Assembly: GCA_021801825.1 (NCBI GenBank)
Contig: JAJYXK010000007.1
Span: 24,509 to 88,508 of the forward strand
Length of the DNA: 64,000 nt
Source: a bacterium
Lineage (GTDB): Bacteria; Patescibacteriota; Minisyncoccia; UBA6257; JAGOQP01
Direction of reading: 5' to 3'
The notes under the pieces are model-generated. The model ran no database searches and was not told where the DNA came from. It saw only the letters and a program-made list of their open reading frames with translations. The translations under genes were made by a program, and so were the position numbers. Of this stretch, positions 1-42,903 are shown in pieces; the stretch's first letter is position 1; each line of letters begins with the position of its first letter.

Positions 1-602
1 TTGGTGCATTTCCCCGGAGTCTTTCCTTGTTCCACGAGGGGAAGTATCTTTCGAGCCTCAGCTATTTCGTCCTTACTCATCATTCCCGCGGCTTCGGCGA
101 ACGCTAAACATGAGGATGCGTTTTTAGGATTAGCGCAATAGGTATCGCAACTCTGGGCGCTGGTGCACCCACCAGGAAGTTGCGCGCCACCTGAGAGTGC
201 TTTAGCAACTTGTTGCGCGCGCGCCAGCTCTTTTTCGGGGAGAAGATTGTGTTCTCCAGCAAATGCAACACACTCTTGTATATGGGCAATGTCATTACAA
301 TAGGTCTGGCAAGATTTTTGATCAGTGCATCCGCCAGGGCCCTTGCCCTTTAAAACATCTTGATATTCTCGCGCATCCGCAACTTCCTGTTCGGAGAGCA
401 GCTGATGTTGTTGCGCGTAGGTAAGACACGCATCCAAATGTGTTGAATCGTCGCAGTACGTTTTACATGCTTGTTGGTTGGGACAATTTCCTAATTCAGT
501 AATAGGGTAGGTAATACTAGACGGAACTGCGTTTACGTTTTGTAGCGCAAACCCAAGAAACAATCCCACAATACCGATGTATAAAAATAGAAATTTTTTC
601 AT
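1..602 (-). CDS. Secreted cysteine-rich tandem-repeat protein, N-terminal part (3' end beyond window edge). Signal peptide, then at least three ~50-aa repeats each with C-x5-C-x3-C-x8-C
   Basis: Manual translation of minus strand from ATG at 602..600 (MKKFLFLYIGIVGLFLGFALQNVNA...) is open to position 1. Repeats GGCTDQKSCQTYCNDIAHIQECVAFAGEHNLLPEKELARA / GGCTSAQSCDTYCANPKNASSCLAFAEAAGMMSKDEIAEA. Not in ORF track because it runs off the window. Confidence 0.6.
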   Translation of the reverse strand, partial: MKKFLFLYIGIVGLFLGFALQNVNAVPSSITYPITELGNCPNQQACKTYCDDSTHLDACLTYAQQHQLLSEQEVADAREYQDVLKGKGPGGCTDQKSCQTYCNDIAHIQECVAFAGEHNLLPEKELARAQQVAKALSGGAQLPGGCTSAQSCDTYCANPKNASSCLAFAEAAGMMSKDEIAEARKILPLVEQGKTPGKCT

Positions 603-609
603 AAGTTTG

Positions 610-867
610 TTATTCAAAAGGATTTTTAGGAGCCTTTTGAAAGGGATTAATATTTTCGCTTGAAAGGGGGTTTGTCTCTGGCATATTTTGCGCGGGGTTT
701 TGTGAAACTCCTTCATACAGCGAACCACCTAAGGTGGGAGTTGATGAGGCGACCGTTGAAGAGCTGTTGTTTGGTGATTTTGTAGGAGATAATAATAAGA
801 AAATTATTATCGCAATAACAACTAAAACAACAAGACCGACAATGATACGTGTTTTGTTCATATACAT
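610..867 (-). CDS. Small membrane-anchored protein (N-terminal TM helix, S/T/P/N-rich tail), immediately upstream of and co-directional with the Cys-rich repeat protein
   Basis: ORF track 85 aa; hydrophobic stretch IIVGLVVLVVIAIIIFLLL; 7-nt gap to next gene on same strand. Confidence 0.45.
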   Translation of the reverse strand: MYMNKTRIIVGLVVLVVIAIIIFLLLSPTKSPNNSSSTVASSTPTLGGSLYEGVSQNPAQNMPETNPLSSENINPFQKAPKNPFE

Positions 868-981
868 AAGTATATATAAAATAGATACGAGGAGATAGTG
901 GTGGACGCTTTACAAATAATTATTTACGTGTTAGTATATAAGCTGAAAATTTACATACTTAATAATATAAGGAAAGCTACA

Positions 982-1668
982 ATGCTAAGCAGCAAATCAG
1001 ACAAACAGCTTGGAAAAGTTGCTACCGCAAAAGCACTCGCAGAGCAGGAAGATGCTTTAGGGGGTATGCTTAAGAATAAACAGGAGGAGCCAGTTGATCC
1101 ATTTAAAGAGAAAAAAGAGTGGTTCCAAAATTTCTATGCCGAAATGTTCGGACTTGAAAATGTTGATTTCTCCGACACTGTCGTTCCTGAACAATCTGGA
1201 GGAAAAGACACTATCCCTTTGTTTATTCCAAAATGGATAACCGCCAAGAAATTAATTGAAGGCGCGAAAAACAAAAAAGTTGATTTCCTCATTGAAATCG
1301 CTCTGGGGATCAATTTAGAGAGAATTGAATCTCAAAATATCTCTCGTCCATACGCGGTATGGGTTACTAATTCTGAAGACCCTGACTTCAAAATATCGGG
1401 ACAAAGAAGGATTCCTGGTGATAGAGAAATTATGTCTATTGAAGAACGGATCATTTTTGGAGTCTTTAAGTTCCAAAAAGGACATCGTTATATAGATGTC
1501 CAGAATCCAACTCTCACATCGGCATATACCTATGTGGGTAATAGCAAAACAGCTCGGGCAGTTATTACAAGGTATATAAAAAACGGCTTGCGTGTTGATA
1601 CACAGGACATAAGCTTAATTGGGTTTGCTCGCGAGGTGTTTGGCAGAATGCCTCACAAGAGTAAATAA
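982..1668 (+). CDS. Hypothetical protein (start moved to internal ATG preceded by aaggaaag)
   Basis: ORF 898..1668; internal Met at 982 with purine-rich RBS; intrinsic terminator follows. Confidence 0.5.
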   Translation: MLSSKSDKQLGKVATAKALAEQEDALGGMLKNKQEEPVDPFKEKKEWFQNFYAEMFGLENVDFSDTVVPEQSGGKDTIPLFIPKWITAKKLIEGAKNKKVDFLIEIALGINLERIESQNISRPYAVWVTNSEDPDFKISGQRRIPGDREIMSIEERIIFGVFKFQKGHRYIDVQNPTLTSAYTYVGNSKTARAVITRYIKNGLRVDTQDISLIGFAREVFGRMPHKSK

Positions 1669-1735: not shown

Positions 1736-2386
1736 ATGAATATGAGTATTTATATTTCAGAATTGCTGCCAAATCCAGCAGGAAAAGATGTGGGGAATGA
1801 ATGGATTGAAATATGTAATAATGGGTCACAGCCGCAATCTCTCGCGGGGTGGAAGTTACAAGATGCAAGTGTAAAAAGTTTTACCATACAAAACATTTTT
1901 GTGGCACCGCAATCATGTGTGGTATTTGGAAACACAGAAACAAAAATATCTCTCAATAATGATAAAGAAACTGTTTCGTTATTTGATATGAGCGGAAATT
2001 TAGTTGATAGAGCTTCATATACTACAGTGGTAAAAGATGATCAGGCGCTTGTGTGGGACACATCAATAAAAAATTTACAACTCACTACCACGCCGACGAA
2101 GGGAGAAATAAGAAATATAATAGCCGCGTCTCCGGCGCGGACAACTAAAAACACAAAACTAAATACCGAAAATAAGATAACCACGACAATCCCGACGACC
2201 GTAGATGTCGGGACCCCTGCCTACCGGCAGGCAGGCCGACTAGAAGCGTCGGGACAGATACAAACACTCACCCCAGGAATGAGTATCGGGGAAGTGGTTT
2301 TAATTGGCGCGTGTGTTGTAGGAATTTTAACAGTGATATTTATGAAAGTTGTTATGCAACTTAAACCGAAAACCGAAGGTTTTTAG
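1736..2386 (+). CDS. Lamin-tail-domain (LTD) protein with Thr-rich linker and C-terminal TM anchor
   Basis: ISELLPNPAGKDVGNEWIEICNNGSQPQSLAGWKLQD matches LTD signature (family knowledge); C-terminal VVLIGACVVGILTVIFM. Confidence 0.6.
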   Translation: MNMSIYISELLPNPAGKDVGNEWIEICNNGSQPQSLAGWKLQDASVKSFTIQNIFVAPQSCVVFGNTETKISLNNDKETVSLFDMSGNLVDRASYTTVVKDDQALVWDTSIKNLQLTTTPTKGEIRNIIAASPARTTKNTKLNTENKITTTIPTTVDVGTPAYRQAGRLEASGQIQTLTPGMSIGEVVLIGACVVGILTVIFMKVVMQLKPKTEGF

Positions 2387-2788: not shown

Positions 2789-6168
<3,380 letters not shown>

Positions 6169-6301: not shown

Positions 6302-6447
6302 AAGAAGCATTTCATTTGCTGGTGATCTAGTGTTGCGTGCCCCACCTCTTCCCATTCCGAACAGAGAAGTGAAAGCGTAATACTCCGATGATACTCGTTC
6401 GCGGGGAAAGTAGGATTTGCCAGCATATGAAATGCTTCTTTTTTATT
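6302..6447 (+). other. 14-bp inverted repeat (aagaagcatttcat ... atgaaatgcttctt) enclosing the whole 5S gene, followed by T-run: processing stem / operon terminator
   Basis: Perfect complementarity 6302..6315 with 6428..6441, then tttttt. Confidence 0.55.
6318..6424 (+). rRNA. rrf: 5S ribosomal RNA
   Basis: gctggtgat...cccattccgaacagagaagtgaaag...gccagc; terminal helix pairing. Confidence 0.9.
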
Positions 6448-6487: not shown

Positions 6488-7519
6488 ATGAGATTATTGA
6501 AACAAATTCTTTACGGAGGCATCTTTCTTATTATTATTGTGCTTGTAGTGTGGTGGTTGGTGGGTTTGATATATACACCAAGTCCAACCTGTTTTGATAA
6601 TTCACAAAACCAAGGAGAAGAAGGAGTTGATTGTGGTGGGCCCTGTATATCGTGCGAAATAAAATCCCTCAAACCAATCACTATTCAAAATAAATTTATT
6701 ATTCCCCTGGAAAATGAGGCGGGGGTAGTTATTGAATTAATTAATCCTAATACGGAATGGGCCGCAAAGTCTTTTGACTATACGCTTATTTTTAAAGATC
6801 AGTTTGGATCTGTGGTTCAATCTATAACAGGCAATTCATTTATATATGCGGGAGAGTTTAAGGACATAATACTTCCCCGTATTTCTGCAAGTAGCACCAC
6901 GGTAGCGACGGTAGACATAACAATACAAAATCCTCAATGGGAACAAAAAGAGATTTTTAGAAAACCCGAGGTGGAAATTCAAGAATTTGGAACAAGCTAC
7001 GAAAAAGGTATCGTTGTGTCAACAAAGATTAATAACAAAGACACTCAATCTCTTATAAACGTAGATGTCGCGGCGCTTGTTTTTAATCGTTCTGGTGTGC
7101 TTATTGGAGCCTCAAAAACACGCATAGATTCTCTTCCTGCATTTGAATCAAAACAAGTGCGCATTATATTCCCTAAAAATCTAGACCTCTATCAGCCAAC
7201 TATTGCTCCTGCTATTAGTTTTTCTCGTGTACTTATACAAGGAGATACCGGTGAAGATGTGGGAGATTTACAAATGGTATTAAAAGAACAGGGATTATAC
7301 GCGGGTGTTACTACAAAGTTTTTTGACGCTGATACACAAGCGGCGGTGCGAGAATTTCAGCAAAAAAATAAATTAGAAGTAACAGGGATGTTGGATGAAA
7401 CCACGCGAATATTTATTAACAAACTTTTAACCGATAATACACCACAACAAAATACTCAGGTTAAAGATACAAGCGTGGATGCGAGCAGGACAAAAGTGTT
7501 TGTGGAGGTGAGCAGATAA
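6488..7519 (+). CDS. Membrane-anchored protein with N-terminal Cys cluster and C-terminal peptidoglycan-binding (PG_binding_1-like) domain
   Basis: N-terminal TM; CFDNSQNQGEEGVDCGGPCISC; C-terminal GDTGEDVGDLQMVLKEQGLYAGVTTKFFDADTQAAVREFQQKNKLEVTGMLD. Confidence 0.6.
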   Translation: MRLLKQILYGGIFLIIIVLVVWWLVGLIYTPSPTCFDNSQNQGEEGVDCGGPCISCEIKSLKPITIQNKFIIPLENEAGVVIELINPNTEWAAKSFDYTLIFKDQFGSVVQSITGNSFIYAGEFKDIILPRISASSTTVATVDITIQNPQWEQKEIFRKPEVEIQEFGTSYEKGIVVSTKINNKDTQSLINVDVAALVFNRSGVLIGASKTRIDSLPAFESKQVRIIFPKNLDLYQPTIAPAISFSRVLIQGDTGEDVGDLQMVLKEQGLYAGVTTKFFDADTQAAVREFQQKNKLEVTGMLDETTRIFINKLLTDNTPQQNTQVKDTSVDASRTKVFVEVSR

Positions 7520-24643: not shown

Positions 24644-25448
24644 GAAGGCATTTCAAAGAAAAATCTGGAATTATTACAACAAACACAAACGCTCTATGCC
24701 GTGGCGAACGCGCGTGACCCCATATTATATATTGGTCTCTGAAATTATGTTACAGCAGACACAAGTCTCTCGTGTATTACAAATCTTTCCTGCATTTATT
24801 AAAGAATTTCCAACAATAACATCTCTCGCGCAAGCCACCCTAGCACAGGTACTAAAAGCATGGCAGGGACTAGGATATAACCGTCGCGCGCTCTATTTGC
24901 ACAGAAGCGCCCGAATTATTAAGGAACGGTACAAGGGAATTATCCCCAAGGACAGGGAACTATTGCAAACACTGCCTGGTATTGGTCCAAATACTGCCGG
25001 ATCTTTGTGCGCGTTTGCATTTAACCAACCAACTATTTTTATAGAAACAAATATTCGTAGTGTGTTTATCCACCATTTTTTTAAGAATGCAAAAAAAGTA
25101 TCCGATAAAGAAATTCTTGCTATAGTAAGAAAAACACTAGATACACAAAGGCCTCGTGAATGGTATTGGGCACTCATGGACTATGGAACGGAATTAAAAA
25201 GAAAAGAAGGTAATCCTAATAAGAAAAGCGCGCATTACACACAACAAAGCACCTTCAAGGGATCTTCACGACAACTTCGAGGAATGATATTGAAAGTATT
25301 ATTGACAACGGATGCAGGAATGACCGCGGGAGAAATTGGAAAGCGGGTGCGCAAAACACCAGATGAACTAAAAAAGTTGTTAGCTCAATTATGTGATGAG
25401 GGTTTTATTGTGTGTAATCGCGCTCGGTATTACATCGTTTCTCACTAA
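24636..25448 (+). CDS. HhH-GPD superfamily DNA glycosylase (MutY/Nth-like, no C-terminal 4Fe-4S Cys cluster)
   Basis: MPWRTRVTPYYILVSEIMLQQTQV, helix-hairpin-helix LPGIGPNTA, catalytic Asp region. Confidence 0.65.
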   Translation: MTTKAFQRKIWNYYNKHKRSMPWRTRVTPYYILVSEIMLQQTQVSRVLQIFPAFIKEFPTITSLAQATLAQVLKAWQGLGYNRRALYLHRSARIIKERYKGIIPKDRELLQTLPGIGPNTAGSLCAFAFNQPTIFIETNIRSVFIHHFFKNAKKVSDKEILAIVRKTLDTQRPREWYWALMDYGTELKRKEGNPNKKSAHYTQQSTFKGSSRQLRGMILKVLLTTDAGMTAGEIGKRVRKTPDELKKLLAQLCDEGFIVCNRARYYIVSH

Positions 25449-26524
25449 AACACTTTCAAAGTGCGAAGTATTTCGTCAAATAATTTCTTTTGATTATCAA
25501 AAGAGATAAACAGGGGTGTGGTTTTGTAACTGATTAGGGTGGTTTCGTCTATATATGTGCGAGTGATGAGGAGGGTTCTTGTTTCGGTAAGGGGGAGGGC
25601 ATATTCGTATAAGCCTTCGCCCTCAGCCCCCATAGAAGAGATTGAACCAGTGATATCTCCAAGAGTAAATGGTTCAGGGGACTGTCCAGTGCTTGATGCT
25701 ATTGCTTTCACAACTTCATCATAAGTAGCGGAGACATTATTAAGCTGAAGTTGCATGTTGGCGGTGGTGGGAGTACACGCGCCAGAGGGCGCACAATGTT
25801 TTGTGGGAATACGATATATGATAGTAGCTCCCGAGGAAGTGAGTCCTGAAAGAGTAGTGGTGTTTTTTGATTTTATAAATACACGCGGATAAGAAATAGA
25901 AAATGATTTCTGTGGATCGGTGTAAGTAGTCCAAGAAGAACTATCTTTTGTAGAAATCAAAAAATATGAGGGGTCGCAATATTTATTCTCAAGAGAACAT
26001 CCTACCTGAATCCAATCATAAAAGGTTTGAGGATTTTGATTGATTGCAAATATAACATGTTGTATGGAAGAAAATTGAGTAAGGGTATTAGTTACTTGTG
26101 CAAGAAACGCGCTTGATCCGCATGAGGAAGAAAGTTGTGATTGAGTTTTTCTAATATCCTGCAGATCTATGTAAGCAGTTCCATCCTCTATAGCAATATC
26201 AATAAGGGGTGAAGTTGTGGTGGTGAGCGCGCTGGAATATCCTTTCTGGATTTCATCTGCGGTTGGTCCTGCAAACAACTGTGCAAGCGCGGCACGCGCT
26301 ACGCCGGTGGTATAGGGGATGGTGCGTTTCACTGGTAGTACCGCCGAACAATCATTTTGAGAAACATTTTTTTGGGAAAAGAATACAGAAAAGGTTATTG
26401 TTTTTTCTTCGTCTTTTGCGGTAGGAGAGGTGACTAGAGAAAGATCTAATATATAAAAAAATAACCCCGCCACTATGATTGCGGTTATTCCTATAAACAT
26501 GAGCCAGCGATATCTTTGAGGCAT
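25445..26524 (-). CDS. Membrane-anchored GerMN-domain protein
   Basis: N-terminal TM; TGVARAALAQLFAGPT GerMN-like signature. Confidence 0.5.
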   Translation of the reverse strand: MPQRYRWLMFIGITAIIVAGLFFYILDLSLVTSPTAKDEEKTITFSVFFSQKNVSQNDCSAVLPVKRTIPYTTGVARAALAQLFAGPTADEIQKGYSSALTTTTSPLIDIAIEDGTAYIDLQDIRKTQSQLSSSCGSSAFLAQVTNTLTQFSSIQHVIFAINQNPQTFYDWIQVGCSLENKYCDPSYFLISTKDSSSWTTYTDPQKSFSISYPRVFIKSKNTTTLSGLTSSGATIIYRIPTKHCAPSGACTPTTANMQLQLNNVSATYDEVVKAIASSTGQSPEPFTLGDITGSISSMGAEGEGLYEYALPLTETRTLLITRTYIDETTLISYKTTPLFISFDNQKKLFDEILRTLKVF

Positions 26525-27338: not shown

Positions 27339-28352
27339 TTAATTATTAATTATAGTGATTGCTAAGGGATTGCTTTGGGTAGAGGTCGCGGAGAGATCAT
27401 ATATATTTGAAACGCGCATGGTGTGATACCCCGCGGATATAGTTTGAGGAACCGTAAATACAAAAATGGTTCCATCGGGAGAAACATATGATGCTTTGGT
27501 GCTTCCATTAAATGAATCATCAAAATAGACAAATGAATTGTTGGTAAATCCAGATCCATATAGTACTGCGCCTGTTTTTGCGTCCGCAGTTAAAGTATTT
27601 TTTGGAAGAATAGATTGTATCACTAAGGGTTTTTGAGCGATGGTAAATACCTTACTCGTTTGATCAAGGGGTGATGGTCCGCCGACCTGATTCTGTACCC
27701 GAATACGATAATTTCCAGAAGCAATAGACGATGTATCTCCCGAAAGCATAGCTCCTACCCGCCACGTATATTGTTTTTCAGGGAATCCTCCGAGTGATAT
27801 GTATCCTTTTCCAACACCATTCTCATCTTCAAGTAGTATAGAATACGCAATGATATTTGAGGGAGCGGTCCAGGCAATAGAAATATAATCTCCCACTACA
27901 ACCGAGGTTCCTTGCGTGGGGGTGGTTACTACAATTGCGGAGGGATTTGTTGCGGAGGTAGTGGTTGTAACAGAGGGAGTAGAGGGGGAAGCTGGTAGCG
28001 TAGGAGTAATGGCAGGACAACTATTTTTTTGTATAGCGGCTCTGGTGAGTGGTCCGGTTACTCCCGTTGTTTGAATACCATATGCGGATTGAAATTTTTT
28101 AACCGCGGAGAGTGTTGCGGGACCAAAAACCCCGTTTGGTTGAGCGGTAAGATATCCGGTTGCAAAAAGATAGTTTTGTAATGAACGTATTTGTCCTCCC
28201 ATAGTGAGGTCGGTTGATCCCTGATATAAATTAGTGGTAATGAGCGTACAAGAAAGTGTCGCGGCGTACGTGGAAGAGCAACTTTCAAATAATATGATTG
28301 TTATACAGATGTTAATAAAAAGCGCCGAATATTTTCTCAAGTTGATTTTCAT
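27339..28352 (-). CDS. Secreted protein with peptidoglycan-binding domain and Ig-like beta-rich region
   Basis: Signal peptide MKINLRKYSALFINICITIILF; GGQIRSLQNYLFATGYLTAQPNGVFGPATLSAVKKFQSAYGIQTTGVTGPLT (PG_binding_1-like). Confidence 0.55.
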   Translation of the reverse strand: MKINLRKYSALFINICITIILFESCSSTYAATLSCTLITTNLYQGSTDLTMGGQIRSLQNYLFATGYLTAQPNGVFGPATLSAVKKFQSAYGIQTTGVTGPLTRAAIQKNSCPAITPTLPASPSTPSVTTTTSATNPSAIVVTTPTQGTSVVVGDYISIAWTAPSNIIAYSILLEDENGVGKGYISLGGFPEKQYTWRVGAMLSGDTSSIASGNYRIRVQNQVGGPSPLDQTSKVFTIAQKPLVIQSILPKNTLTADAKTGAVLYGSGFTNNSFVYFDDSFNGSTKASYVSPDGTIFVFTVPQTISAGYHTMRVSNIYDLSATSTQSNPLAITIINN

Positions 28353-28432
28353 ATAGATATATCTTATCGCCTTTCTATTTTTCAAACAACCCAACTCAAG
28401 ATTTTTCATAATTTCTTGCGATTGAAATATGT

Positions 28433-28471
28433 TAAAAAACAAAAAAATCCCGCCGAGGAAAAGGGGCGGGA
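28433..28471 (-). terminator. Rho-independent terminator downstream of tRNA-Trp (minus strand: tcccgcc-N10-ggcggga + T7GT6)
   Basis: Plus strand aaaaaacaaaaaaatcccgccgaggaaaaggggcggga. Confidence 0.5.
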
Positions 28472-41451: not shown

Positions 41452-41553
41452 ATACCATAAAAACAAATGCTCTCCACACAAGAGCATTTGCGTATCTAAA
41501 AATTTTTATGTGTGCTATTATGTAAACTCATAAATATAAGTAATCTATTTTTT

Positions 41554-42354
41554 ATGGATCAAAAACAACACGATATCATAAAAGCGGAGCATTCATTTGA
41601 GAAAGTTCAGAGCAAAAATACGCTTATTATTAGCGCGTCAATTATTTTAGGGGCAGTTATTGTAGGGGTGTGTGTACTCTATGCAGGAAGCATATTTAAA
41701 TCCATTGGAGACACCGGAAGTCAAGTTGTAAACAATCCGACCAATAATGCCGCACCGCAGGCGGGAGGTACCGCGACCCCAGAAGAAACGAAACAGATCC
41801 TTTCTGTAAAATCAGACGATTATGTATGGGGAAATCCACAAGCACCGGTAAAATTAGTTTTATTTACTGATCTTGAATGTCCATTCTGTAAGAGATTTGA
41901 CGAAACACTGAACTCCGTTATGAAAACATATGGAAAAGATGGAAAACTTGCAGTGGTGTATAGACATTTCCCGCTTACTAACATTCACAAAAAAGCCCTT
42001 CCTGAGGCTCAAGCGTTAGAGTGCGCGGGTAAATTGGGTGGCAACGAAGCTTTTTGGAAATTTGTATCTCGCGTTTTCTCGGTGACTCCATCAAACGATG
42101 GACTTGATCCAAAAGAATTGCCAAATATCGCTTCATTTATTGGTTTGGATGTAAAAGCATTTACCGCATGTCAGAACAATAATAATTTTTCCGATAAAAT
42201 TCAGAGAGAACAACAAGAAGGAGTTAAAATTGGTGTTCAGGGAACTCCGCACAGCGTGGTGGTGGCTCAAAATGGGAAAACCTTTGTTATCAACGGGGCT
42301 CAAGATGAAACAAGCGTAAAATCTATTATTGATACCGCGTTGCAGGAAAAATAA
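41554..42354 (+). CDS. DsbA-family thiol:disulfide oxidoreductase with N-terminal TM anchor
   Basis: CPFC active-site motif in thioredoxin fold; ORF trimmed to Met at 41554. Confidence 0.65.
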   Translation: MDQKQHDIIKAEHSFEKVQSKNTLIISASIILGAVIVGVCVLYAGSIFKSIGDTGSQVVNNPTNNAAPQAGGTATPEETKQILSVKSDDYVWGNPQAPVKLVLFTDLECPFCKRFDETLNSVMKTYGKDGKLAVVYRHFPLTNIHKKALPEAQALECAGKLGGNEAFWKFVSRVFSVTPSNDGLDPKELPNIASFIGLDVKAFTACQNNNNFSDKIQREQQEGVKIGVQGTPHSVVVAQNGKTFVINGAQDETSVKSIIDTALQEK

Positions 42355-42378: not shown

Positions 42379-42903
42379 ATGAATAACACCGTATCCGTGC
42401 TTAAGCGACCGGCATATCTTCTCTGTACTATTGGGGGTATGCTAGTAGGATATAGTGTTATTTCTTTTTCTATCCACGCTTCTCTAATTATTTCTCTCCT
42501 CGCCTCAGCTCATTCTTTTAAGGTTATTCCAGTGGTTCTTCATATTCTTATGTGGGGAACTTATGCGGTAGGTGGGTGGATTACGGTTACTACGAGTGTG
42601 ATTACATCTTTTTTATGGGGAGTGGTTATTGCTCTGGGTATATATTATATGCGTCACGCAAAAACCATTCACGTTATTATGTCGTCAGGAATTAGGGGTG
42701 TTATTGCTTTAGTGGGAGGAGTGTTGAGCGCGGGGTGTTGGGCGTGTGGAGGGGTATTATTAGCCCCTCTTGTTGGCATGATTGCTGGTGGCGTTTCGGT
42801 GACATTACTATATATTGGGGGAACCGTTATGACCTCCATCAGTTTTGGGCTCTTGGCATATTCTATTTATAAATTAGATAGAGCAATTGGACGATTGGGC
42901 TAA
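42379..42903 (+). CDS. Polytopic membrane protein with membrane-embedded CWAC (CxxC) motif; candidate DsbA redox partner (DsbB/VKOR analog)
   Basis: 4-5 TM helices; GCWACGG; directly downstream of dsbA-like gene. Confidence 0.4.
   Translation: MNNTVSVLKRPAYLLCTIGGMLVGYSVISFSIHASLIISLLASAHSFKVIPVVLHILMWGTYAVGGWITVTTSVITSFLWGVVIALGIYYMRHAKTIHVIMSSGIRGVIALVGGVLSAGCWACGGVLLAPLVGMIAGGVSVTLLYIGGTVMTSISFGLLAYSIYKLDRAIGRLG

Follow-up and report, generated by a model that had tools for sequence, protein, structure and literature searches.

A widespread two-gene unit of Patescibacteria pairs a predicted secreted cysteine-rich helical-repeat protein with an NPF-tailed membrane protein

The DNA analysed here (the window) is a stretch of 64,000 nucleotides (nt) of contig JAJYXK010000007.1, positions 24,509 to 88,508, in GenBank assembly GCA_021801825.1. 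It has a GC content of about 40% and carries housekeeping genes, and close homologues of its proteins are labelled Candidatus Paceibacterota, which belongs to the Patescibacteria or candidate phyla radiation (CPR). Two co-directional genes occupy its first 867 nucleotides on the minus strand. The upstream gene encodes a small membrane protein with Asn-Pro-Phe (NPF) motifs in its tail (the partner); the downstream gene, cut by the window edge, encodes a protein of tandem repeats with four cysteines each (the 4-Cys repeats). The features of this locus are as follows.

1..602, minus strand: 5' part of the repeat gene, codons 1-200 of 573 (open frame, continued in contigs L001 and L002; 66 homologues, E down to 2e-94)
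528..602, minus strand: predicted Sec-type signal peptide, aa 1-25 (MKK, hydrophobic core, then VNA before the cleavage site and VP after it), read from the sequence; low-confidence AlphaFold2 helix at 9-21
342..509, minus strand: cap YP(I/V)xELGNC and 4-Cys repeat 1, aa 32-87; Cys 40, 46, 50 and 59
183..341, minus strand: 4-Cys repeat 2, aa 88-140; Cys 92, 98, 102 and 111
21..182, minus strand: 4-Cys repeat 3, aa 141-194; Cys 146, 152, 156 and 165
1..20, minus strand: first residues of 4-Cys repeat 4 (..TPGKCT), truncated here by the window edge and whole in L001
603..609, minus strand: intergenic spacer of 7 nt, from the stop of the small gene to the ATG of the repeat gene
610..867, minus strand: partner gene, 85 aa (or 83 aa from ATG 861); 109 of 114 assessable loci have an equivalent upstream
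790..846, minus strand: putative transmembrane (TM) segment or signal anchor of the partner, aa 8-26, IIVGLVVLVVIAIIIFLLL, with K5 and R7 before it, read from the sequence
613..699, minus strand: predicted extracytoplasmic tail of the partner, aa 57-85, with NPA, NPL, NPF and NPF, ending ...KNPFE-COOH, read from the sequence

An earlier note on this DNA had proposed a partial gene for a secreted, cysteine-rich repeat protein running off the window edge. The minus-strand frame from ATG 602 to base 3 has 200 codons and zero stops, and the partial gene is real. The list of open reading frames (ORFs) for the window leaves out frames that run off the sequence end, and the repeat gene is therefore unlisted. 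Two metagenome contigs, L001 and L002, were retrieved by exact look-up of the 85-aa partner protein; they match the window with 0 mismatches over 3375 and 1064 nt respectively, and both run past its edge. On these contigs the leftward extension that the note had suggested carries the ORF on, uninterrupted by a stop or frameshift, to 573 aa. Downstream of the repeat gene on the extension are a 65-aa helix-turn-helix-like ORF and a convergent RuvB-like AAA gene, the latter read by eye.

The N-terminal signal peptide, the three full tandem Cys-rich repeats (about 53 aa each) and the fourth one just begun can be read directly from the sequence, as the note had done. The protein starts with MKKFLFLYIGIVGLFLGFALQNVNA followed by VP, a Sec-type signal peptide whose cleavage site was placed by eye. 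This signal peptide (MKKFLFLY...) contains neither a lipobox nor an RR (twin-arginine) motif. Within the window fragment the repeats begin at Cys 40, 92 and 146, and the fourth at residue 199. The core pattern given in the note, G-(N/G)-C-x5-C-x-T-Y-C-x8-C-x2-(Y/F)-A, was found in every repeat; the trailing LL-x-E-x-E-(L/I)-A-x-A was not invariant as described, since it is exact only in repeat 2, with V in place of L/I in repeat 1 and MM in place of LL in repeat 3. The repeats share 39-41% identity with each other (BLASTP E = 5e-13 and 4e-16). Tandem Repeats Finder detected no DNA-level tandem repeat within the gene, and therefore the repeats are old and selected at the protein level, rather than the product of a recent expansion or an assembly artefact.

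The full protein of 573 aa contains 32 Cys in total. Its order is signal peptide, cap YPITELGNC, five 4-Cys repeats (Cys 40 to 266), and then a C-terminal half with four two-Cys helical repeats, each about 56 aa long (Cys 305 to 507), which a linker rich in Pro and Gly joins to a terminal motif. This last motif also holds four cysteines, C-ANFSSVPS-C-SYVPPQFKDL-C-EK-C-KGE (L001 4400-4492).

The small TM protein that the note had placed upstream is an 85-aa ORF at 610-867 of the minus strand, with one hydrophobic span and a stop 7 nt before ATG 602. Its third codon, ATG 861, may be the actual start, because close homologues are 82-83 aa long. The C-terminal stretch of its tail reads ...NINPFQKAPKNPFE-COOH, and the C-terminal end of the protein ...NPLSSENINPFQKAPKNPFE. 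The 7-nt spacing indicates that the two genes lie in one operon, and their translation is probably coupled; a scan for consensus promoters 5' of the operon gave nothing convincing.

Three samplings were used to describe the family of the repeat protein, namely a word-indexed search, an exhaustive HMMER search, and a scan with a hand-made degenerate DNA pattern covering the cap and the first repeat. The word-indexed search returned 66 homologues, all annotated as 'hypothetical' and all from CPR lineages save one probable mis-binning. The exhaustive HMMER search gave 1,678 representative clusters (50% identity) at E <=1e-3, and 869 at <=1e-30; the proteins are mostly 400-1,000 aa long. The DNA pattern was found on at least 120 contigs from GTDB species-representative genomes; 121 matches were listed, and the locus counts below rest on these. 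The named hosts include Harrison-, Lloyd-, Jorgensen-, Azam-, Nomura-, Yanofsky-, Nealson-, Kaiser-, Uhr-, Terry-, Wolfe-, Wildermuth-, Niyogi-, Lipton- and Gottesmanbacteria, among others, and every host with an informative name belongs to the Patescibacteria. The same pattern had no match among viral contigs, and a phage gene was ruled out on this ground. Judged by these searches, the module appears to be wide within, and specific to, the Patescibacteria.

Some loci, all with the partner, come from species-representative third-party bins whose labels read 'uncultured Gammaproteobacteria' or 'archaeon' (L030, L043, L052, L060, L069, L078, L080 and L092). These labels would be either placeholders or mis-binnings, or else the module is present outside the CPR. 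The versions with non-CPR labels tend to have more Cys (44-60), and their partner tail is slightly different (Y-x-NPF-x(6)-Y-V-NPF).

The partner was called in a first automated pass as a small ORF just upstream of the repeat gene, with a strongly hydrophobic segment and 1-5 NP(F/Y/L/M/V) motifs in the last 45 residues. Among the matches listed, this pass found it in 95 of 121. When the other 26 loci were scanned again, 14 had a partner ORF 90-500 nt upstream, which had been missed through the choice of start codon or an extra N-terminal domain, and 7 could not be assessed owing to short upstream sequence. The total among the listed matches is thus 109 of the 114 assessable loci, and the same gene arrangement was seen in six further loci read by hand. 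With this count, and one locus in which the two genes are fused, the idea of a partner is stronger than the earlier note could know. The gap between the partner and the repeat gene in homologous loci is typically about -4 to +10 nt.

The tails of these partners are alike. Their consensus is ...NPLENKPDxNPxDK(T/A)NPFxxx(Y/K)(T/K)NPF-x-COOH, with the NP motifs most often spaced 8 residues apart (the mode). Of 95 partners, 66 end exactly one residue after the last NPF, and 85 end within 0-2 residues of it. The equivalent of the TM segment has 15-17 hydrophobic residues out of 17. A single-sequence search with the 85-aa partner returned only four close homologues; in these comparisons the partner family is recognisable through its motif and position, not through BLAST-like similarity. 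Repeat proteins with more 4-Cys units tend, weakly, to have partners with more NP motifs (rho 0.32, p 0.004, uncorrected for phylogeny). In the natural fusion, P0005, one ORF runs from a membrane span through NPF motifs to the repeats, and no second signal peptide is hidden in its other frames. Since the repeats are Sec-exported elsewhere, this fusion would put the NPF tail outside the membrane.

When the ORFs around 120 loci were clustered all against all, conservation was confined to these two genes; the family in third place was present at 6 loci. A third conserved component, such as a sortase, a transporter or a regulator, was not found over the same 120 loci. The module is therefore a self-contained two-gene unit. 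That the repeat protein is paired with an NPF-tailed stub in the membrane is new and robust, and confidence is high that the locus has a real gene for a secreted repeat protein stabilised by cysteines, along with an obligate gene for the NPF-tailed partner.

As proposed here, a family member is recognised by the cap (Y/F)P(I/V)xELGNC and, after it, 4-8 units of roughly 53 residues that share the pattern C-x5-C-x3-C-x8-C-x2-(F/Y)-A; in the window protein the cap spans aa 32-40 and the units number five. The cap lies directly after the signal peptide in 60 of the 66 homologues, and its P, E, L, G and N residues and the four Cys are invariant in the homologue alignment. Among the matches listed, 76 of 95 complete proteins have 4-6 repeats, with a range of 1-9. 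The spacing C-x5-C-x3-C-x8-C was kept in 223 of 232 repeats, and all four Cys were present in 1,981 of 1,987 distinct, fully aligned repeat instances. Some members carry accessory modules, for example a Kazal domain (P0074), LamG-type lectin-like domains (P0084 and P0088), or an Ig-like N-terminal extension as judged by eye. Moreover, low-complexity regions contain 'mini-repeats' (GPGGC-x5-C-x3-C-x5-8-C), in which the four Cys are kept and the rest of the domain is lost.

The C-terminal ends fall into two types. A Pro-rich linker and an amphipathic helix are found in 158 of 248 complete members (about 60%). The helix has about 15 residues, usually with R/K at the end, and follows a PPPPSS-type linker. 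Its hydrophobic moment is 0.48, compared with 0.35 for shuffled sequences, and its median apolar run is 8.5 residues; by these measures the helix is predicted to be amphipathic and not membrane-spanning. About 7% of members have instead the ending CxxFxSVPxCSYV...CxxC, which also closes the members that contain LamG. The window protein is of this second type, where the 4-Cys motif takes the C-terminus and there is no amphipathic helix. The two modules were mutually exclusive (e.g. in L013, L018, L041, P0075 and P0091), and both look like targeting or anchoring signals. In some loci the repeat protein is split over two consecutive ORFs on the same strand (L005 6001-7467, L006 6001-7299 and L012 6001-7850), the second of which carries on the repeats and the C-terminal tail; many database entries of the family are 'partial'. 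The split ORFs may be genuine, may reflect programmed events, or may come from frameshifts in the assembly.

AlphaFold2, run on the repeat protein with an alignment of 67 sequences, predicted a confident all-alpha array, with a mean predicted local distance difference test (pLDDT) score of 86 (>90 across the repeats) and a predicted template-modelling score (pTM) of 0.73. Each repeat has three helices in the model, for example 43-51, 53-65 and 71-84 in repeat 1 (pLDDT >90). C1 lies in the loop preceding helix 1, C2 and C3 lie one turn apart in helix 1, and C4 lies in helix 2. The GPGG linkers between repeats were also modelled confidently, and thus the array is predicted to be rigid. A homologue with 5 repeats was modelled alike (pTM 0.70).

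The earlier note had not recognised the repeat, and it is indeed unmatched by any known family above threshold in Pfam, in NCBIfam, or in PDB sequence and fold searches. Pfam and NCBIfam scans of the fragment, the full-length protein and diverse homologues gave only sub-threshold matches to the repeat region. Single-sequence and profile queries had no match in the PDB sequence search, and the predicted model had none in the PDB fold search. DUF445 and phasin were considered as relatives and rejected as sub-threshold noise in sequence searches. Ferredoxin-type Fe-S proteins were rejected as well: Fer4_8 reached 12 bits against a cutoff of 27, the spacing is C-x5-C-x3-C-x8-C instead, and the signal peptide has no RR motif for Tat export. 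The literature searched contained no published description of the repeat or of the gene pair. As judged by these searches, the 4-Cys helical repeat is an undescribed domain family in the libraries and papers covered; the general kind, that of secreted, Cys-stabilised helical-repeat surface proteins, is already known.

Judged by analogy, the nearest functional analogue is the group of Helicobacter cysteine-rich proteins HcpA-E, which consist of Sel1-like repeats (SLR). Structures of HcpB and HcpC show tandem alpha-helical units, each cross-linked by a disulfide, in a solenoid-like array. Both systems have Sec-secreted proteins with tandem alpha-helical repeat units; however, Sel1 (PF08238) matched neither the window fragment (E up to 10) nor the 573-aa protein (E up to 1), and the window protein shows no structural similarity to the solved SLR/Hcp solenoids. 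The unit here has about 53 aa, three helices and four Cys, whereas the Hcp unit has about 36 aa, two helices and two Cys. We know of no NPF-tail partner gene for the Hcp proteins. The twin CX3C/CX9C proteins (small Tims, Cox17 and CHCH) are also small helical units that depend on cysteines, with a helix CX3C stapled to neighbouring Cys. However, the present unit has one CX3C, with the other Cys at -6 and +9, and forms a bacterial extracytoplasmic tandem array, whereas the former is a single domain of the mitochondrial intermembrane space; the window protein has no sequence or fold match to these proteins.

For the partner, the TPR-EEVD and armadillo-NLS solenoids offer a conceptual model of how a periodic NP(F) tail might lie along tandem repeats. 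Eukaryotic EH domains bind NPF, a motif shared with the partner, although the EH-NPF interaction is cytosolic and eukaryotic. The window protein has no match to TPR, ARM or EH (EF-hand) domains, and no homology is implied. Cohesin-dockerin pairs and the helix anchors of the E. coli PBP5 type are similar in that a secreted protein is kept at the surface by a small anchor or an in-plane helix; Pfam and NCBIfam scans of the repeat protein found no cohesin, dockerin, SLH or LPXTG elements. Anchoring by sortase was rejected, since the window protein ends with CEKCKGE and only 0-2 residues follow the last NPF of the partner (85/95); the NCBIfam sorting-signal models had no match either.

The earlier note had left open whether the repeat is disulfide-rich or metal-binding, and the former is rather better supported. 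It is probable, from several features of the sequences, that the four Cys are stapled by disulfides. Export is of the Sec rather than the Tat type; repeats with two Cys share a chain with the 4-Cys repeats; the number of Cys is even in 79 of 95 complete homologues among the matches listed; and Kazal domains, which are obligately disulfide-bonded, and LamG domains occur in family members. The window also encodes a membrane-anchored DsbA/MdbA-like oxidoreductase with a CPFC site (41512-42351, plus strand), and MdbA-like oxidoreductases are reported to be enriched in the CPR (PMC6744442). Starting 27 nt after this gene is an ORF (42379-42900, plus strand) for a 174-aa polytopic membrane protein with a CWAC motif, which had no Pfam or NCBIfam match and only six close homologues. 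It could be a DsbB/VKOR-like re-oxidation partner, in a lineage said to be without quinones. The pair of oxidoreductase and CWAC genes recurs in a relative with 65% identity; the whole region is syntenic there, and hence this is not independent evidence.

Some points weigh against disulfides. Among about 2,000 repeats there is one informative case of paired Cys loss, a repeat of P0052 with Ala in place of both C1 and C2. This single case would suggest that C1 pairs with C2 and C3 with C4, contrary to the pairing expected from the hairpin geometry. In the model, the C1 of the loop, the C2 and C3 of helix 1 and the C4 of helix 2 could all converge, and four converging Cys would suit a metal site equally well. 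Many Patescibacteria live in anoxic water and are without quinones, so that the upkeep of disulfides is hard to account for. Each 4-Cys unit might thus be a tetrahedral Cys4 metal site (Zn, or Fe under anoxic conditions), and the protein an extracellular array for metal binding or buffering. The near invariance of the four Cys per unit, their persistence in mini-repeats that have lost the remaining domain, and the often anoxic habitats of the CPR are all in keeping with such a site. The metal reading is nevertheless thought unlikely, since the protein is exported via Sec and not Tat, the same polypeptides also contain 2-Cys repeats and Kazal domains, and one natural repeat is short of C1 and C2 only. 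Moreover, neither His/Asp co-ligands nor metal-transport genes nearby are conserved, the Fer4_8 match is weak (12 bits against 27), and the window encodes a DsbA-like oxidoreductase.

The findings can be combined into a Patescibacteria-specific two-gene operon for an extracytoplasmic surface module, in which a rod would be tethered by the NPF-tailed partner. Taken as a whole, this proposal is about evenly poised between right and wrong. The repeat protein would leave the cell via Sec, and would fold and be oxidised outside the membrane. Its N-terminal half would most likely be a rigid array of three-helix units of about 53 residues, each locked by two disulfides, which might be formed after export by a membrane-anchored oxidoreductase of the DsbA/MdbA type. 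The partner would be an N-in/C-out membrane protein, whose outer tail, with 2-4 NP(F/L/V) motifs about 8 residues apart and the end NPF-x-COOH, might serve as a docking peptide. It would keep the rod on the outside of the cytoplasmic membrane, in a cell without an outer membrane. The row of NP motifs may run along the row of repeats, in the way that other helical solenoids bind peptides. The period of about 8 residues (roughly 25-30 Å when extended), together with the free C-terminus, suggests an extended peptide along helical repeats; by analogy with those solenoids, docking of the tail on the repeats is put forward only tentatively. In most relatives the C-terminal amphipathic helix would provide a second membrane anchor.

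We infer from the sequences that the repeat protein is extracytoplasmic and that its role is structural, that of a spacer, or adhesive, the tethered rod being a possible structural or adhesive scaffold. Such a role is suggested by the lack of a catalytic signature, the predicted rigid array, the lectin-like and Kazal modules, and the lack of a conserved enzymatic or regulatory neighbour. A more specific version, in which a phylum-specific, non-covalent anchoring system has the NPF array of the membrane stub read one motif per repeat by a disulfide-locked solenoid, must be regarded as a long shot.

Several observations count against the tethered rod. AlphaFold2 left the NPF segment of the natural fusion unstructured (pLDDT <50), the alignment being very shallow there; the fusion was seen once only, on a single metagenome contig; and five loci with adequate upstream sequence have no partner. 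The undocked NPF segment and the five loci, together with the own C-terminal amphipathic anchor of most homologues, would also fit two genes that are co-expressed and whose products do not bind each other. The NPF-tail protein would then have its own role, for example as a binder of wall polymers or of another surface protein, or as an assembly factor, and the repeat protein would be anchored or released independently. This is considered improbable, because the adjacency holds in 109 of 114 loci of very divergent lineages where all other neighbours vary, the gene spacing is tight or overlapping, one natural fusion exists, and the numbers of NP motifs and repeats are weakly correlated.

Still less probable, to a degree that makes it marginal, is a peptide signal and its receptor, similar to Phr-Rap or other RNPP systems, where a released NPF peptide would be bound extracellularly by the helical-repeat protein. 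The small protein is most conserved at its extreme C-terminus, as are Phr-type precursors, and a small gene adjacent to a helical-repeat gene resembles such a cassette. However, the 19-residue hydrophobic segment has no obvious signal-peptidase site and looks more like an anchor than a cleaved leader. The repeat protein has a signal peptide and no TPR match in Pfam, it lacks any TM or cytoplasmic domain for output, and its neighbourhood contains no conserved regulator; the receptor would be secreted, whereas Rap and the other RNPP receptors are cytoplasmic TPR proteins. A Cys-rich antimicrobial or toxin-like effector (of the defensin, thionin or nodule-peptide type) aimed at the host bacterium is hardly credible: in spite of weak Pfam similarity to Late nodulin, AtDEF-like and Gamma-thionin (E 0.05-0.3) and precomputed PF25052 flags on a few homologues, the scores are 12-14.4 bits against curated cutoffs of 25-30.4, the model is all-alpha and not cysteine-stabilised alpha/beta, and the protein is 573 aa long with many repeats rather than a short (<100 aa) peptide, encoded by a single-copy, vertically conserved gene with a membrane partner alongside.

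Elsewhere in the window, two PG_binding_1 proteins and one Germane-domain protein (6488-7516, plus strand; 27342-28442 and 25448-26524, minus strand) point to a peptidoglycan-containing monoderm envelope, which would be consistent with the need of secreted proteins for a membrane tether. Divergent from the operon is a 256-aa ORF without a family match (898-1665, plus strand), followed by the gene of a lamin-tail-domain (LTD) protein whose C-terminal part has a hydrophobic segment (1736-2383, plus strand); neither of them is conserved beside the module in other genomes. The 23S rRNA gene (2797-6164, plus strand) gave a match of 3368 nt against a model of 2925 nt, with about 440 nt of insertions. 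The 5S gene follows at 6318-6425 (plus strand), and no 16S gene lies upstream, where the LTD gene is found instead. The arrangement resembles the unlinked rRNA operons with insertions that are often reported for the CPR.

The Patescibacteria represent a large share of bacterial diversity and live attached to other cells, and the function of most of their lineage-specific surface proteins is not known. The module described here is very widespread in the CPR and structurally well predicted, has no relatives in the libraries searched, and is simple enough in architecture to be tested, with four invariant cysteines per repeat and a partner whose NPF motif is strictly C-terminal. It offers a new domain family to define, a tractable hypothesis of peptide-repeat binding, and a natural substrate for asking how CPR cells without quinones make and keep extracytoplasmic disulfides. 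If the reading of one motif per repeat were true, it would mean a new protein fold with a new motif-repeat recognition code, and a rigid stalk on ultra-small episymbionts that spaces the envelope or holds adhesive modules (LamG and Kazal) toward the host cell. The finding is relevant to CPR cell biology and domain discovery, and if the rod belongs to the attachment or envelope apparatus, it would bear directly on the episymbiotic lifestyle.

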